A DNA stretch of 64,000 nt. Source: Escherichia coli. GTDB taxonomy: Bacteria > Pseudomonadota > Gammaproteobacteria > Enterobacterales > Enterobacteriaceae. The DNA is taken from assembly GCF_048403405.1 (NCBI RefSeq), contig NZ_CP183129.1; one strand, 5' to 3'. The translations under genes were made by a program, and so were the position numbers. Below are positions 7,440 to 25,765 of this stretch, piece by piece. Positions within the stretch are counted from its first letter, which is position 1. Every line of letters starts with the position of its first letter. Under the pieces are notes generated by a model. It saw only the letters and a list, made by a program, of their open reading frames with translations. It did not search any database and had not been told where the DNA came from.

Positions 7440-7609
7440 AATGGCTCACTCAAGCTTGCTCACGATTGATTCCAGTAACAAACCGTATTGTGTAATTATT
7501 TCTATAGCAGGTCGCTATATAGGCTTGTATACATCGAATAATTTGAAAATCAAAGAGATAGGTAGATTTTCACTCGAAAGTAGTATTACGTGTAAGTGAG
7601 GAGTAATTA

Positions 7610-7623
7610 TTGTTCGGTATCAA
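7610..7623 (-). promoter_or_regulatory. Candidate FNR binding site of the dmsA promoter
   Basis: Plus strand ttgttcggtatcaa, i.e. TTGATaccgAACAA on the dmsA strand, matching the TTGAT-N4-ATCAA FNR consensus with one mismatch; dmsABC is a known FNR-activated anaerobic operon. Confidence 0.55.
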
Positions 7624-7631
7624 AGGGAGAC

Positions 7632-7657
7632 AAAAAAAGCGCCCGCAGGCGCTTTTT
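7632..7657 (-). terminator. Rho-independent terminator downstream of serS
   Basis: GC hairpin GCGCCCGCAGGCGC flanked by an A-run and a T-run, so potentially bidirectional; lies just 3' of the serS stop. Confidence 0.6.
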
Positions 7658-7677
7658 AGATTCAGAAAAATTGGGTA

Positions 7678-11184: not shown

Positions 11185-14100
11185 TTAGTCAAACGGCGGT
11201 GGGGCCAGCACTTCACGATTACCGTTGTGCCCCTGTTCGCTGACAATCCCCTGCGCTTCCATCTGTTCGATAATACGCGCTGCACGGTTATAACCAATGC
11301 GGAACTGACGCTGTACGCCAGAAATTGATGCTTTGCGTTTTTCAGTGACAAACTGCACCGCCTGATCGAACAACGGATCCAGCTCTTCAGCGCCATCGAA
11401 ACCGCCCGCGCCACCTTCGCTTTCGCTGTCGGAGGTGATGCCATCAACATACTGTGGGCGACCACGCGCTTTCCAGTCCTGCACCACGGCATGAACTTCC
11501 TGATCGCGAACAAAAGCACCATGAACACGTACCGGCAACGTGGAGTTCGGCCCAGAGTAAAGCATATCCCCCATACCCAGTAGTGATTCCGCGCCAGCCT
11601 GATCAAGAATGGTACGTGAGTCAATCTTACTGGATACGGTAAAGGCGATACGGGTCGGAATATTCGCTTTAATCAGACCAGTAATAACATCAACCGATGG
11701 ACGCTGCGTTGCCAGTACGAGGTGGATACCCGCGGCACGGGCTTTTTGCGCCAGACGTGCTATCAGCTCTTCCACTTTTTTACCTACCGTCATCATCAGG
11801 TCGGCAAATTCGTCCACCAACACCACAATGTACGGTTCTTTTTTCAGCACCGGATGCTGGGCATCCATACTGTCACCCGGCTTCCAGTACGGGTCTGGAA
11901 TCGGACGCATCATCCTATCGGCTTCAGCAATTTTTTCGTTATAACCCGCCAGATTACGCACACCCAGCGCAGACATCAGTTTATAACGACGCTCCATCTC
12001 GTTAACACACCAGCGCAGCGCGTTGGCGGCATCTTTCATATCAGTAACGACTTCCGTTAACAGATGCGGGATGCCTTCATAAACCGAAAGCTCCAGCATT
12101 TTCGGGTCGATCATGATGAAACGCACATCTTCTGGCTGTGCTTTATAAAGCATGCTCAGGATCATCGCGTTCACACCGACAGACTTACCGGAACCGGTAG
12201 TCCCCGCAACCAACAAGTGCGGCATTTTCGCCAGATCGGCAACCACCGGCTCACCGGCGATATCTTTACCCAGCACCACGGTTAATGGCGACGGATTATC
12301 GCGGAATTTGGCGTTATCCAAAACTTCGCGCAGATATACGGTTTGTCGTTTTTTATTCGGTAACTCCAGACCTACATAGGGTTTGCCAGGAATAACTTCA
12401 ACGACACGCACCGCCACCGTCGAAAGTGAACGGGCAAGGTCCCGTGACAAGTTAGAAATGCGCGCCGCTTTTACGCCAGGAGCCAGGTTAAGTTCAAAGC
12501 GAGTGATAACTGGCCCCGGAGAGTAATTGACGACATCGGCTTTAATACGGAAATCAGCCAGACGCGCTTCCACCAGACGCGCCATTTGTTCAAGCGCAAA
12601 GGTATCTACCGGCTCCACTTCGCTCGGCGGAGGTGTCAACAAATCCAAAGAAGGCAGCGGCGTCGTCGGTTTATGCAACGGACGGCTGTCGCCATTACGC
12701 ATCAACAGCGGATGAAGCAGGGTATCCTGCGGCTGTGGCGCAACTGGCTGTTGCGGCTGCGGCGCAACCGGCTGTTGCGGCTGCTGATACTGCGGCTGCT
12801 GTGCAACCGGCTGTTGTGGCTGCTGATATTGCTGCTGCGGTGCAACCGGCTGTTGCGGCTGCTGATACTGCGGCTGCGGCGCAACTGGTTGCTGCGGCTG
12901 CTGATAATGTTGCTGCGGTGCAATCGGTTGTTGCGGCTGCTGTACAGGTTCAACAATTGGCGTAAACAACGGTTCGTGTGGACCATCATCCAGCAACGCT
13001 TTCATTGGCGAAAATTCAAAATCATCCAGCGAGAACGGATTCGCCCCAGCCGGTTGTTCGCCGGAATAACGTTGTTGTTGAGTTTGCGCAAACTGACGAG
13101 CCAGTTCAGCCTCTGCCGCAGCATCTGCATCTTCTGCGTTTACGGGCACATCATGTTGATACTGTTCGCCATAGCGTTGCTGCTGTGTCTGGGCGAACTG
13201 ACGTGCCAGTTCATCCTGCTGCATCGCATCGATTTCATCATCGTTGTACTGATCGCCAGAATCGTACTGATTGCGCTGGGCTTCACGGGCTTTTTCTTCC
13301 GCCGCACGCTGTGAGGGCAGCTTAATACCGTAAGACGCCAATTCACGACGAGTTGGCACGCGGATACGTTTCGGTCGTGGCAACTGCGGGCCAATCCCCT
13401 CTTTGACCTGCGGACGCGGTCCACCGCTATTTGCCAGACTGAAGACTGGCGCGGCAACGGTTGCGGCAGCCCCCGTCGCCAGTGTCGCTTTTTTCACGCC
13501 AGATGCCAGCGGAGAAACAGCGGCAGCGGCTTCTACTGGAGGTACTGCTGCAACAGAAGGTGCTTTCAGCGAAGATTTGATCGGTTCTGGTTCTTTAACC
13601 GGTTCTGGAATCGGTTGATACCAGGCCGCAAGTTGTTCACGTTCACGGGCTCGCTTCTCTTCCACTTCTTCAAAGTAGTAAAGCGGCGGACGCGCGGGTT
13701 TTGTCTCTTCTACAACGGGTTCAGGCTCCACAACAGGCTGCTGTTCAACGGGTTGCGGCTGTTGGTACAACGGCTCCTGAGCGGCTGGCTGCTGATAAGT
13801 TTGCTCAGTCTGGTATGTAGACTGTGGAGCAAAAGTGGATTGCTGCTCTTCGGCTTGCCAGGCGTTACCTGCCACCGATTGTTCTGGCGCAGGGGCGTAA
13901 TACGGCTGTTGCGCAGACTGTTCCGGCGCAGGGGCGTAATACGACTGTTGCGCAGACTGTTCCGGCGCAGTTGCGTAATGCGGTTGCTGAACAGGTTGTT
14001 CAGCTGCAGGCGCATAATACGGCTGCTGTGGCTGTACAGGTTGTTGCAGCGGCTCATTATATTGCACTGCAGGCTGCGCATATTGTGGCTGCTGTGGGTA

Positions 14101-15237
14101 ACCTTCCGGTGCAGGAGCAATAACCGGCTCTCCCGTTTGTGGCCCCGGTACAGGCTGCCAGGCTACTGTAGGTTGTGCAGGTGGAACATCAACAGAGGCA
14201 ACAGGCGGCGTCTGAGTCACAGGTTCAACCGGCGCAGCCCAGCTTTGTGTCGCCGTGGTAGCAGCAGCTGCTACAGCAACAGGTTCGGTAATTGGCGCAC
14301 CGTTTAATAATGGATCGTATTCGTCATATTCTGGCTGCGTTGCACGATTGCCCGAAAAGAGGACGTCGTCCGGGTCGGCAGCCACACCGCGTGCAGTGTA
14401 GGTAATCTCTTCTTCATCATCCATCCGCTTACCGGAGAACAACGCAGCATCTGTTTGCCGCCCCATCGGATTAATGAATTTTTCCGCCAACCGTTTACGA
14501 CGCGCTAGCGCGCCGCGAAGAATACGGGCACGGCGTGATTCATGCTGTTTGCCGTGATTTTCATCTTCGTATTCTTCGTCGTCTTCATACTCATCTTCAT
14601 CGACCCAGGTATCATCGCGACGGGTACGATTACTGGCGAAGGTGAGAATATTTAAAATCCAGCCGCCGAGTTTTTCAGCAATGGTCACCCATGACCAACC
14701 GGTGAACAGCGTCAGGCCCGCTGCCCAAACGCAGAGCAGCGCAATAGTTCCCCCGCTACTGTGTAGCAGTGGTTGTAGCGTAGTGCTTAGTAAGCTGCCA
14801 ATGACGCCACCGGAGGCAAAATACCAGATATCGTCAGCGTTGATTGCCGCCAGACCACAGGAGGTAAGGATGAGCGCCAAAACGCCAATGATGCGTAGCG
14901 AAACGGCAAAATAATCAATGTATTCGTCGCTGGACTGATGACGCCAGGCAAACCAACAACCGCCGACAATAATGACGGGAATGGTGTAAGCCATCACGCC
15001 AAAAATAAAGAACAGCGTATCTGCCAGCCACGCACCGGGCATCCCACCTAAATTATGGATAGGTTCATGCCAGGCCGTTTGCGACCAGCTGGGGTCCGAA
15101 GGGTTAAAGCTTAGTAAGGCAGCCATCAACCAGACGGCAAACAGGACAATAAGGATCAGCAACGCCTCCAGAAGGCGGCGGCCGCTACTTAACTTTGTCA
15201 ATGTGACTTCTTTGTCTTCAGTGTATTCCTGGCTCAA
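11185..15237 (-). CDS. ftsK: DNA translocase FtsK
   Basis: 1350 aa; N-terminal membrane domain, long Pro/Gln-rich linker encoded by tandem DNA repeats, C-terminal Walker-A motor domain (GTTGSGKS). Confidence 0.95.
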
Positions 15238-22014: not shown

Positions 22015-22236
<222 letters not shown>

Positions 22237-22489
22237 TTGTTTTACCGCCTGATGGGCGAAGAGAAAGAACGAGTAAAAGGTCGGTTTAGCCGGCCTTTTT
22301 ATTTTGTGATATGTATGAAGTACTTTGGAAGTATAAATCCATAACTTGTCTCGATGTAGATATACTGCACAACTTGTTTACAGTATGAGCAAACAATAAT
22401 TATCATTAAAATTCTTCTTGACCGTTTTACTCCAACTCCCTATAGTAGCGCCCCGTTGCCACCCATGAGGTTTGGCAGCAAAACAATTT

Positions 22490-22577
22490 GGTGAGGTGTC
22501 CGAGTGGCTGAAGGAGCACGCCTGGAAAGTGTGTATACGGCAACGTATCGGGGGTTCGAATCCCCCCCTCACCGCCA
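22490..22577 (+). tRNA. serW: tRNA-Ser (anticodon GGA)
   Basis: 88-nt sequence GGTGAGGTGTCCGAGTGGCTGAAGG...GGTTCGAATCCCCCCCTCACCGCCA with D-loop, long variable arm, T-loop GGTTCGAAT and an anticodon loop containing GGA. Confidence 0.93.
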
Positions 22578-23160
22578 TATTTAAAGAAAAGCTCGTACGA
22601 AAGTGCGAGCTTTTTTTTTCGCATATTGCACTCCAGGGGGGATGAGAAGCCCCGACCGGGGTTCGACAACTGGCGCAGCCAGTTGGACAGACCACGAACA
22701 CAGTGAGTGGGCTGCCCGCAGGGCGAGCGAAGCGAGTCAATCCCCCCCTCACCGCCATATTCAAAGAAGAGCTCGTACGAAAGTGCGAGCTTTTTTTTCG
22801 CATATTGCACTCCAGGGGGGATGAGAAGCCCCGACCGGGGTTCGACAACTGGCGCAGCCAGTTGGACAGACCACGAACACAGTGAGTGGGCTGCCCGCAG
22901 GGCGAGCGAAGCGAGTCTATCCCCCCCTCACCGCCATATTTAAAGAAAAGCTCGTACGAAAGTGCGAGCTTTTTTTTCGCATATTGCACTCCAGGGGGGA
23001 TGAGAAGCCCCGACCGGGGTTCGACAACTGGCGCAGCCAGTTGGACAGACCACGAACGCAGTGAGTGGGCTGCCCGCAGGGCGAGCGAAGCGAGTCTATC
23101 CCCCCCTCACCGCCATATTCAAAGAAGAGCTCGTACGAAAGTACGAGTTTTTTTTCGCAT
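22561..23160 (+). repeat. Tandem array of about 179-bp units, each ending in a copy of the serW 3' end
   Basis: The 17-mer tccccccctcaccgcca recurs at 22561, 22741, 22920 and 23099 (period 179-180); units are near-identical and alternate between two variants (tatttaaagaaaag / tattcaaagaagag); each carries the terminator hairpin. Confidence 0.85.
22587..22619 (+). terminator. Rho-independent terminator after serW
   Basis: Hairpin GCTCGTAC-gaaa-GTGCGAGC followed by nine T; the same hairpin recurs in every downstream repeat unit. Confidence 0.7.
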
Positions 23161-23458
23161 TTTATCTGCCTGTACGGCAGTAAACGGTATAAAAATCGGG
23201 TTTTTCTTTCGGCTGGCTTTCTAAGCTGCCTGTACGGCAGTGAACTCAAATACTACACGTCTAGCCCGTTGTTAATAAAGCAAAACCATCTCATTTTCCT
23301 GCTACCACCCTTTTTTATCCTTACCTTCCCGCAGCACTAATTATCAACAACTTACCATCATCATCAAAAAAAGGGTCTGAACCTCCTCCACCCCATAAAC
23401 AAAAAGTCCGTAACCTCTTTCGAGATTACGGACTTCACCAACCTACCTAACAATTAGA

Positions 23459-25735
23459 TTAATGCGCTGCTTCCGCCTTGTGCTTTTGTGCACTCTGGAA
23501 TCCATAAGTCAGCTCATTTTTCTCTTTATCCAGCGCAACCGTCACCTGACCGCCGTCCACCAGCGAACCAAACAACAGTTCGTTGGCGAGCGGTTTTTTC
23601 AGGTTGTCCTGGATGACACGCGCCATCGGACGTGCGCCCATTGCCCGGTCGTAACCTTTCTCGGCCAGCCAGTTACGCGCTTCCTGGCTCACTTCCAGAG
23701 AAACACCTTTCTGATCCAACTGAACCTGCAACTCGACGATGAATTTATCCACTACCTGATGGATCACGTCGGTTGACAGATGATCGAACCAGATAATGTT
23801 GTCGAGACGGTTACGAAACTCCGGCGTAAAGATCTTCTTGATCTCTTCCATCGCATCGGTGCTGTTGTCCTGGTGGATAAGACCAATCGATTTACGCTCA
23901 GTTTCTCGTACCCCAGCGTTGGTGGTCATCACCAATACCACGTTACGGAAGTCCGCTTTGCGTCCGTTGTTATCGGTCAGCGTACCGTTGTCCATCACCT
24001 GCAACAGAATATTGAACACGTCCGGGTGCGCTTTCTCGATTTCGTCCAGCAGCAGCACCGCATGTGGATGCTTGATGACCGCATCAGTCAGCAAACCGCC
24101 CTGATCAAAACCAACGTATCCCGGAGGCGCACCAATCAGACGGCTGACGGTATGGCGTTCCATATACTCGGACATATCAAAGCGCAGAAGCTCAATGCCC
24201 AAAGCTTTCGAAAGCTGTACCGTCACCTCTGTTTTCCCGACCCCGGTAGGGCCGGCAAACAGGAACGAACCGACCGGTTTATGTTCGTGACCTAAACCTG
24301 CACGCGCCATCTTAATGGCTTCAGTCAGCGCCTCGATGGCTTTATCCTGACCGAAGACCAGCATTTTCAGGCGATCGCCGAGGTTTTTCAGGGTATCGCG
24401 GTCACTCTGAGAAACACTCTTCTCTGGAATGCGCGCAATACGGGCCACCACGGACTCAATATCCGCCACATTAACGGTTTTCTTGCGTTTGCTTACCGGC
24501 ATCAGGCGTGCGCGAGCGCCCGCTTCGTCGATAACGTCAATGGCTTTATCCGGCAGATGACGATCGTTAATGTATTTCACCGCCAGCTCTACCGCTGCAC
24601 GCACCGCTTTTGCGGTATAACGCACGTCGTGGTGCGCTTCATACTTCGGTTTCAGGCCATTGATGATTTGAACAGTTTCTTCGATCGACGGTTCAGTAAT
24701 ATCAATTTTCTGGAAGCGACGCGCCAGAGCACGGTCTTTCTCGAAAATGTTGCTGAACTCCTGATAGGTTGTCGAACCAATTACGCGAATTTTACCGCTG
24801 GAGAGCAACGGTTTGATTAGGTTAGCCGCATCGACCTGACCACCAGACGCTGCACCCGCACCGATAATGGTGTGGATCTCATCAATAAACAGGATGCTGT
24901 TAGTGTCCTGCTCCAGCTGCTTGAGCAACGCTTTAAAACGTTTTTCAAAGTCGCCGCGATATTTTGTGCCCGCTAACAGAGAACCGATATCGAGAGAGTA
25001 AATCGTACAGTCAGCCATCACTTCCGGCACATCGCCCTGAACAATTCGCCAGGCAAGACCTTCTGCAATCGCGGTTTTACCGACACCAGATTCCCCCACC
25101 AGCAGCGGGTTGTTTTTACGGCGACGGCAGAGAACCTGAATAGCACGCTCCAGCTCCTTCTCACGACCAATCAGTGGGTCGATTCCGCCCACGCGCGCAA
25201 GCTGATTCAGGTTCGTCGTGAAATTCTCCATACGTTCCTCCCCACCAGCTTGTTCTTCGCTGTTTGGCTGGCTGCCAGGATCAGAAGACTGTGTCGGCTC
25301 GTCTTTACGCGTGCCATGAGAGATAAAGTTCACCACATCGAGACGGCTGACTTCATGTTTACGCAACAGATATGCCGCCTGCGACTCCTGTTCGCTAAAG
25401 ATAGCGACCAGAACGTTTGCACCGGTAACCTCATTGCGACCGGAGGACTGGACATGGAAGACCGCACGTTGCAGTACACGCTGAAAACTCAGCGTTGGCT
25501 GTGTGTCGCGCTCCTCTTCACTGGCAGGCAGAACGGGTGTGGTTTGTTCAATAAAGGCTTCCAGTTCCTGACGGAGCGCAACCAAATCCACAGAACACGC
25601 TTCCAGCGCCTCCCGGGCAGATGGGTTACTGAGCAGCGCCAGTAACAAGTGCTCGACGGTCATAAACTCATGACGGTGCTCGCGCGCTCTGGCGAAAGCC
25701 ATATTTAAACTGAGTTCCAGTTCTTGATTGAGCAT
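23459..25735 (-). CDS. clpA: ATP-dependent Clp protease ATP-binding subunit ClpA
   Basis: Start moved to [17 protein letters not shown]... (758 aa); two AAA+ modules (GESGVGKT and GPTGVGKT). Confidence 0.95.
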
Positions 25736-25765
25736 AGGCACCTCCCCCAATTTTTATGCCTGCAT

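Follow-up and report, generated by a model that had tools for sequence, protein, structure and literature searches.

Three probable RtT-type tRNA-trailer units in tandem behind the tRNA-Ser gene serW of Escherichia coli

Directly behind serW, the gene for tRNA-Ser(GGA), a stretch of 64,000 nucleotides of Escherichia coli DNA (here called the window) carries what is very probably a tandem array of three RtT-type tRNA-trailer units, belonging to a tRNA-Ser subfamily of the element first described from the tyrT repeats. The element itself is already known: its family is in Rfam, and it is annotated at serW in public genomes. The systematic differences that set the Ser subfamily apart from the Tyr type are a minor addition to this knowledge. 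No paper describing Ser-linked arrays was found in the literature searched.

The tyrT operon was reportedly found to contain 178-bp repeats by Egan and Landy in 1978, and Bosl and Kersten are said to have observed in 1991 that the tyrT rtT RNA is released with a 3' end in CCA. PMC3318445 describes RtT as the RNA product of the 178-bp repeats that follow tyrT and cites Bosl and Kersten 1991 for this. A link between the tyrT rtT RNA and the stringent response is a suggestion repeated in a recent preprint (10.1101/2024.07.17.603846).

Table 1. Features of the infA–clpA region, in window coordinates.
Feature	Position	Strand	Basis or remark
infA	22018-22236	+	window gene
Second promoter candidate for serW	22377-22406		promoter scan
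serW promoter, predicted sigma-70	22418..22446	+	TTGACC, 17-nt spacer, TATAGT; promoter scan
serW, tRNA-Ser(GGA)	22490..22577	+	ARAGORN; Rfam tRNA 53.8 bits
Unit 1, 180 bp from CCA to CCA	22578..22757	+	Rfam RtT match 22621-22757, 45.1 bits
Terminator T1, after an A/U-rich tract	stem 22583-22618, T-run to 22619	+	fold -21.2 kcal/mol
Unit 2, 179 bp	22758..22936	+	T2 ~22763-22798; body 22800-22936; Rfam RtT 44.0 bits; unit alignment
Unit 3, 179 bp	22937..23115	+	T3 ~22942-22977; body 22979-23115; Rfam RtT 43.9 bits; unit alignment
Terminal partial unit: A/U-rich tract, T4 (23122-23155), CGCAT	23116..23160	+	terminator scan; K-12 comparison
CRISPR degenerate repeat	23158-23185	-	26.4 bits
Single 32-nt CRISPR spacer	23186-23217	-	differs from the K-12 spacer at the same place
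CRISPR good repeat	23218-23245	-	Rfam CRISPR-DR4, 50.1 bits
clpA own terminator	23403-23436		terminator scan
clpA, convergent with serW	23459-25750	-	window gene

Three parts make up a unit of the array: the serW 3' end including CCA (17–19 nt), an intrinsic terminator and a body of about 117 nt that is structured. The final 17–19 nt of serW, AATCCCCCCCTCACCGCCA, are re-used as the end of each unit. The 17-mer TCCCCCCCTCACCGCCA, which represents the last 17 nt of tRNA-Ser(GGA), starts on the plus strand at 22561, 22741, 22920 and 23099, exactly where the original prediction had placed it, and has no further occurrence in the 64,000-nt window, for which chance would give about 7e-6. According to the ARAGORN placement of the tRNA, the copy at 22561 is the genuine tRNA 3' end. 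The copies follow one another at periods of 180, 179 and 179 bp, resulting in three tandem units directly 3' of serW and on the same strand. Tandem Repeats Finder sees the whole as one array of 3.4 copies (22559–23160), in which the period is 179 and matches amount to 97%. The identity between the copies covers 62 bp, comprising the tRNA 3' end, the terminator and CGCAT, and beyond that the entire 179-bp unit, at 97–99%.

Behind every 3'-end copy stands the hairpin GCTCGTACGAAAGTGCGAGC, with a tract of 8–9 T after it. The hairpin with its T-run folds at -21.2 kcal/mol (z = -5.5 versus shuffles). The expectation of a terminator after each copy is thus confirmed, the fourth hairpin bearing substitutions (GTACGAG, then T8). 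The terminal partial unit to which this fourth hairpin belongs is the counterpart of the lone serW terminator in the K-12 allele. The motif GGTTCGA is found at 22553, where it is the true T-loop, and again at 22660, 22839 and 23018. A conserved stretch of about 130 bp with this motif had been assigned to each 3'-end copy, which is correct for the first three copies but not for the fourth, as a CRISPR remnant follows the fourth terminator.

Successive units alternate between TATTTAAAGAAAAG and TATTCAAAGAAGAG in the 14 nt after CCA. This alternation had been noticed before and was taken to indicate the amplification of a two-unit block. The alternation stands, but the block does not. Three other polymorphic markers, T9 versus T8, ACACAG versus ACGCAG and GTCAAT versus GTCTAT, are out of step with it, so the units form a mosaic and not a clean two-unit-block duplication. 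Protein coding by the array was considered and set aside as improbable; there are many open reading frames, but they shift at every unit, 179 being indivisible by three.

All three bodies, together with their tRNA-like ends, match the Rfam family RtT (RF00391) over the full model. The gathering score of this model is 45 bits; unit 1 lies above it, also in a scan of the whole window, and units 2 and 3 lie just below. Elsewhere, orthologous serW units reach 45.1–48.6 bits, serX units 46.3 bits and tyrT units 133–137 bits, and two Citrobacter serW units are absent from the output at the gathering threshold. Since the Ser-type scores lie at the threshold, membership in RtT leans partly on alignment and architecture. 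The window units and the tyrT units have core motifs in common, namely GGATGAGAAG, four free positions, GACC, four free positions, TTCGAC, and then CCCGNAGGGCGAG and GAGTNAATCC, and these shared motifs extend the homology of body and tyrT unit outside the tRNA-derived end. Furthermore, each unit closes with the 3' end of the tRNA ahead of it, copied with its CCA, which also holds for the Ser and Tyr units of other genera.

In other E. coli genomes, RefSeq marks this serW position as "RtT sRNA". Such labels are also found behind serX, where a K-12-lineage genome has three units with a 181-bp period, and behind tyrT and tyrV, the order in the same genome being tyrT, RtT, tyrV and three RtT units. 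The low scores make the Ser-linked units a divergent subfamily that the model only just captures, which explains why all three serW units go without an RtT annotation in a genome identical to the window. Because these units lie at the edge of the Rfam model and are systematically unlike the tyrT type, the labels given by automatic annotation are uneven, which a dedicated Ser-type model would mend. One of the alternatives raised initially, that the array might encode a tRNA-derived small RNA, is supported by its placement in the RtT family, which is known for a small RNA derived from a tRNA operon.

The likeness to the tyrT RtT repeats concerns the whole layout. Both consist of tandem units of about 178–181 bp directly behind a tRNA gene, both re-use the last 17–19 nt of their own tRNA including CCA as the unit end, and both combine the common core motifs with a closing stem between the 5' segment and the tRNA-derived 3' segment and with a copy number that varies between strains. 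They differ in the host tRNA, which is Ser(GGA) and not Tyr in the window, in the G/C-only composition of the T-stem-like segments, in the Rfam score (about 45 versus about 135 bits) and in two internal hairpins of different sequence and length. They differ in the terminator as well. Among the units collected, 38 of 39 of the Ser type have a strong hairpin with a T-run ahead of the body (median -21.5 kcal/mol), as against none of the 30 Tyr-type units (median -1.9 kcal/mol).

A close relative of the window array is that of K-12 behind serX, in the ghrA–ycdU interval. It follows an identical tRNA gene sequence, has the same module of 3' end, terminator and body, and comprises three units whose bodies are 92–93% identical to those of the window. 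It differs in its chromosomal locus, in its period of 181 instead of 179 bp and in a few body indels.

Folding of one unit, which had been recommended at the outset, gives a body (-55.9 kcal/mol, z = -2.0) with four internal hairpins in addition to the terminator at -21.2 kcal/mol. In the predicted fold, the closing stem is formed by GGGGGGAU of the 5' body segment and the tRNA-derived AUCCCCCC, and the tail CUCACCGCCA is left single-stranded. The structure of the window unit, including the terminator, was transferred to 36 distinct units of the Ser type, which come from about a dozen genera. In these, 92.4% of the cells are paired, a percentage that is inflated, as the structure was derived from one of the same sequences. 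Changes on both sides of a pair affect 13 pairs and 77 cells, compared with 24.6 cells in shuffles, and the covariation score was reached by none of 500 shuffles. Slid controls remain at or below 55% paired cells and 19 cells with changes on both sides. The compensatory changes are located in the terminator stem and two internal hairpins, while the closing stem and the CCCC/GGGG hairpin are nearly invariant within the Ser type. Covariation gives no separation between the pairing of S1 with S4 plus S2 with S3 and the pairing of S1 with S2 plus S3 with S4, since the four T-stem-like segments differ between tRNA types as a set and show little variation inside either type.

The occurrence of the element in other species was surveyed by scanning one genome per species with the pattern GATGAGAANNNNNGACNNNNGTTCGA, which returned at least 80 loci. 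As the pattern demanded GATGAGAA, GAC and GTTCGA, it would miss relatives behind other tRNAs that have diverged further. Among the matches listed, those from enterobacteria with a detectable tRNA lie 60–68 nt behind tRNA-Ser(GGA) or tRNA-Tyr(GTA), or about 180-nt steps further downstream. Matches in unrelated phyla, again among those listed, have no tRNA nearby, and their number is about what chance predicts. The free positions of the pattern correspond to the T stem of the host tRNA, reading CCCC/GGG behind tRNA-Ser and CTTC/AAG behind tRNA-Tyr in the listed matches.

Most of the listed loci with recognisable flanks are syntenic, being flanked by ghrA (serX), by infA/aat or clpA (serW) or by purU/narI (tyrT); the serW-type loci with infA/aat or clpA flanks include three Citrobacter loci. 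Such syntenic placement across genera implies that the element is old and vertically inherited at three tRNA loci, and not specific to a strain. When serW-type and serX-type bodies are compared across genera, the closest similarity is that between neighbours of the same array. The greater likeness within arrays than between loci points to concerted evolution.

Two of the loci at ghrA deserve a description of their own. In Enterobacter cloacae DSM 26481 (locus L037, 6042–9445), RtT units lie about 65 nt behind each of two tRNA-Ser(GGA) genes that are about 3.4 kb apart; the module of tRNA plus RtT seems to have been duplicated as a whole. E. coli SCPM-O-B-8794 (locus L051, around 6640) has a short unit of 106 nt, in which GGGGTTCGA of the body runs without a gap into AATCCCCCCCTCACCGCCA/AATCCCCC. 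A complete T-arm sequence is thereby restored, which shows that the body segment concerned corresponds to the 5' half of a T arm. The short unit looks like a deletion product, recombination having joined the T-loop-like motif in the body to the tRNA-derived end.

Within E. coli, the number of units at serW is variable. The infA–clpA interval was used as a query against 5,426 complete E. coli genomes. It spans 1145, about 1322, about 1500 or 1683 bp in the sequences read, equivalent to 0, 1, 2 or 3 units at serW, and the array at this locus is therefore a true variable-number tandem repeat (VNTR), one of the alternatives originally offered. The span of 1145 bp, with no unit, is that of K-12 and most strains, and E. 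coli B strains have two units. In the K-12 allele, the single terminator with CGCAT leads straight into the downstream sequence. The spacer between serW and clpA, put beforehand at about 880 bp and expected to be much shorter in K-12, measures 881 bp in the window and 343 bp in K-12, and the difference of 538 bp is exactly three units. The comparison of this interval over the 5,426 genomes likewise bears out the suspicion that the copy number varies between strains. The number of units at serX also differs, being three in the K-12 lineage and one in another strain.

Variable RtT arrays are not new to strain typing. One MLVA locus, ms09, is built on a repeat of 179 bp (PMC8215070), with a forward primer that maps next to the tyrT array; RtT arrays are thus already in use as a VNTR marker. 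Because the family is in Rfam, is annotated by RefSeq at serW in other strains and has a sister array at tyrT that serves in typing as ms09, the present finding is of small weight. What the serW locus offers is ready material for work on the function of the RtT RNA, in the form of natural alleles with 0–3 units, of which K-12 carries none and B strains two.

To judge from the structure of the array, units of 179 bp would be gained or lost when they undergo unequal homologous recombination or when replication slips between them, and recombination between the bracketing 62-bp direct repeats could remove the array as a whole and leave the K-12 allele. As regards expression, a consensus promoter scan of both strands detected no promoter-like site within the array. 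Behind the T-run, TATATT/CATATT was considered as a promoter and discarded, an acceptable -35 being absent by eye. Besides the second candidate listed in Table 1, the predicted serW promoter is the sole promoter-like site positioned to drive the array. With no promoter of their own, the bodies would be transcribed solely by RNA polymerase that starts at the serW promoter and reads through the preceding terminator. As each body is preceded by a terminator of -21 kcal/mol with 8–9 U, expression could be very low.

A CCA followed by an A/U-rich tract is the usual setting of tRNA 3' processing. The tRNA-like 3' end of a unit and the A/U-rich tract behind it may accordingly be cut and trimmed by the tRNA 3'-processing enzymes, which would yield RtT-like RNAs ending in CCA, like the tyrT rtT RNA. 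A comparable case is the 3'ETS of leuZ, which Lalaouna et al. reportedly identified in 2015 as a sponge for sRNAs. Like the proposed RtT RNA, it is a trailer of a tRNA transcript that is freed by tRNA processing. It differs from the window array in being unrelated in sequence and not repeated.

The main rival explanation is a neutral, silent VNTR. According to this explanation, the serW array is a serX copy that spread or was converted recently, is silent behind the first terminator, has no function at serW and is governed by drift. It has a real but minor chance of being right. The interval query was matched over at least 80% of its length in 778 of the 5,426 genomes (14%); this was taken as at least one unit, the two coinciding among the matches listed, and it leaves about 86% of the genomes with no unit at serW. 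A Ser-type body is detectable anywhere in 3,806 genomes, with no match in the other 1,620 (about 30%). Arrays at serX are common in E. coli and those at serW belong to a minority. With so many genomes lacking units, any function must be dispensable in this species. The strong terminator ahead of every body and the concerted evolution within arrays also speak for neutrality. However, the body and terminator are conserved in about a dozen genera with compensatory changes in three helices, a pattern that is hard to keep without selection on the RNA and that counts against neutrality for the family as a whole. The Citrobacter arrays at clpA/infA, moreover, show that the placement at serW is no recent accident of E. 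coli.

A more far-reaching view is that the Ser-linked elements form a distinct, terminator-coupled RtT subfamily whose RNA acts as a mimic or pairing partner of tRNA-Ser, namely of its T arm and 3' end. This view is speculative and rather improbable. The Ser-type body resembles a T arm whose halves GGGGTTCGA and AATCCCCC have been parted by about 75 nt of inserted sequence, and the T-stem-like segments of the Ser-linked elements, GGGGGG, CCCC, GGGG and CCCCCCC, track the T stem of the host tRNA. Together, the two features suggest an RNA that imitates or pairs with these parts of tRNA-Ser. If so, it might serve as a decoy for enzymes acting on the tRNA 3' end or T-loop, or for RelA, the dose of which would be set by conditional read-through of the terminators and by the copy number. 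No description of a role of the Ser-linked elements as a T-arm mimic or decoy was found in the literature searched.

Four near-identical terminators within 600 bp could also be understood as a stack or insulator, in which bidirectional hairpins stop transcription between the strong serW promoter and the convergent clpA and CRISPR remnant and the RtT bodies act as spacers. The A-rich and T-rich flanks of the hairpins (A-tract, stem, T-tract) make termination plausible both ways. Even so, this explanation is very unlikely. A single terminator is enough in K-12 and most strains, clpA has a terminator of its own, and both the covarying, conserved body and the terminator-free tyrT arrays would be left unexplained.

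Equally slim are the prospects of the RtT body being a small, non-autonomous mobile element with tRNA 3' ends as its targets, which it would duplicate on insertion. Its presence behind two different tRNAs and at three E. coli loci, bounded in each case by the local tRNA 3' end, would suit such an element. Nevertheless, only two tRNA species serve as hosts among the matches listed, at loci that are syntenic across genera, and the internal segments are fitted to the T stem of the host. Neither terminal inverted repeats nor an association with a transposase nor scattered copies were found, and just 7 of the 9,223 places at which the Ser-type body occurs in E. coli records are on plasmids.

The interpretation favoured initially, stacked att remnants, fares worst. 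It regards each 3'-end copy as a scar left by the integration and excision of an island targeting tRNA-Ser, and the 130-bp segments as arms of these elements. The sequence CCCCCTCACCGCCA is the 14-bp direct repeat used by the islands OI-43, OI-48 and SRL-PAI at serW and serX (PMC3064760), and each of the four copies contains it. There are also strains with a tyrosine integrase at a distance of about 160 bp from a 3'-end copy of this kind. The likeness to these P4-integrase island repeats ends with the core, however: in OI-43, OI-48 and SRL-PAI (PMC3064760), the same 14-bp core alone is duplicated, with tens of kilobases of island DNA and an integrase gene in between, whereas the window has 179-bp units head to tail. 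No island DNA was found between the copies in the window. The copies are identical far beyond the core, over 62 bp and then over entire units, and the DNA between them is an RtT element kept at syntenic tRNA loci across genera, including tyrT. Clean excision, in addition, is scarless and restores a single copy.

The islands that do occur at serW tell the same story. In three E. coli loci (L008, L011 and L012), islands with a P4-type integrase are inserted in the genuine tRNA 3' end, and the rebuilt tRNA end is followed by the island's own, different terminator. The integrase looks towards a 15-bp copy at the clpA end of the island, behind which the host terminator follows undisturbed, in L012 with one RtT unit. 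The use of distal copies as secondary attB sites was searched for with a chimera of the RtT end and the left end of one island family, which at 80% query coverage or more was matched in 0 of 5,426 genomes; the junction of the same left end with the true tRNA is common among them. Stacked att scars are rejected on these grounds, their residual probability being negligible: whole units are identical, RtT lies between the copies, the islands examined sit in the true tRNA and distal junctions of the one island family searched for are absent from the 5,426 genomes.

The left end of the island in E. coli THO-010 (L008, 4561–4600) shows how such an insertion alters the tRNA gene's surroundings. The tRNA 3' end is rebuilt and then followed by the unrelated terminator hairpin GCGCATGTTATTGTTTAACATGCGC and a T-run, so that the island terminator replaces that of the host for serW transcripts.

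The array is directly followed by an orphan type I-F CRISPR remnant on the minus strand (23158–23245), consisting of a good repeat, a degenerate repeat and a single spacer. The spacer matches csy3 of type I-F systems, at 27–28 of 30–32 nt, in E. coli genomes with I-F cas genes. Anti-cas spacers in orphan CRISPR4 arrays are a published idea, and the csy3 match fits it.

Elsewhere in the window, two arrays of a 39-bp repeat (12728–12950 and 13880–14025) lie inside an open reading frame of 1350 aa on the minus strand (11185–15237), which we take to be ftsK from its size and position. MLVA primers map in this frame, those of ms06 at 13760 and 14119 and one of ms07 at 13183, which identifies the two arrays as known in-frame VNTRs. 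Two further Rfam matches above the gathering score, STnc130 (7530–7664, plus strand, 140.1 bits) and RybB (63201–63279, plus strand, 104.1 bits), are ordinary for this part of the E. coli chromosome.
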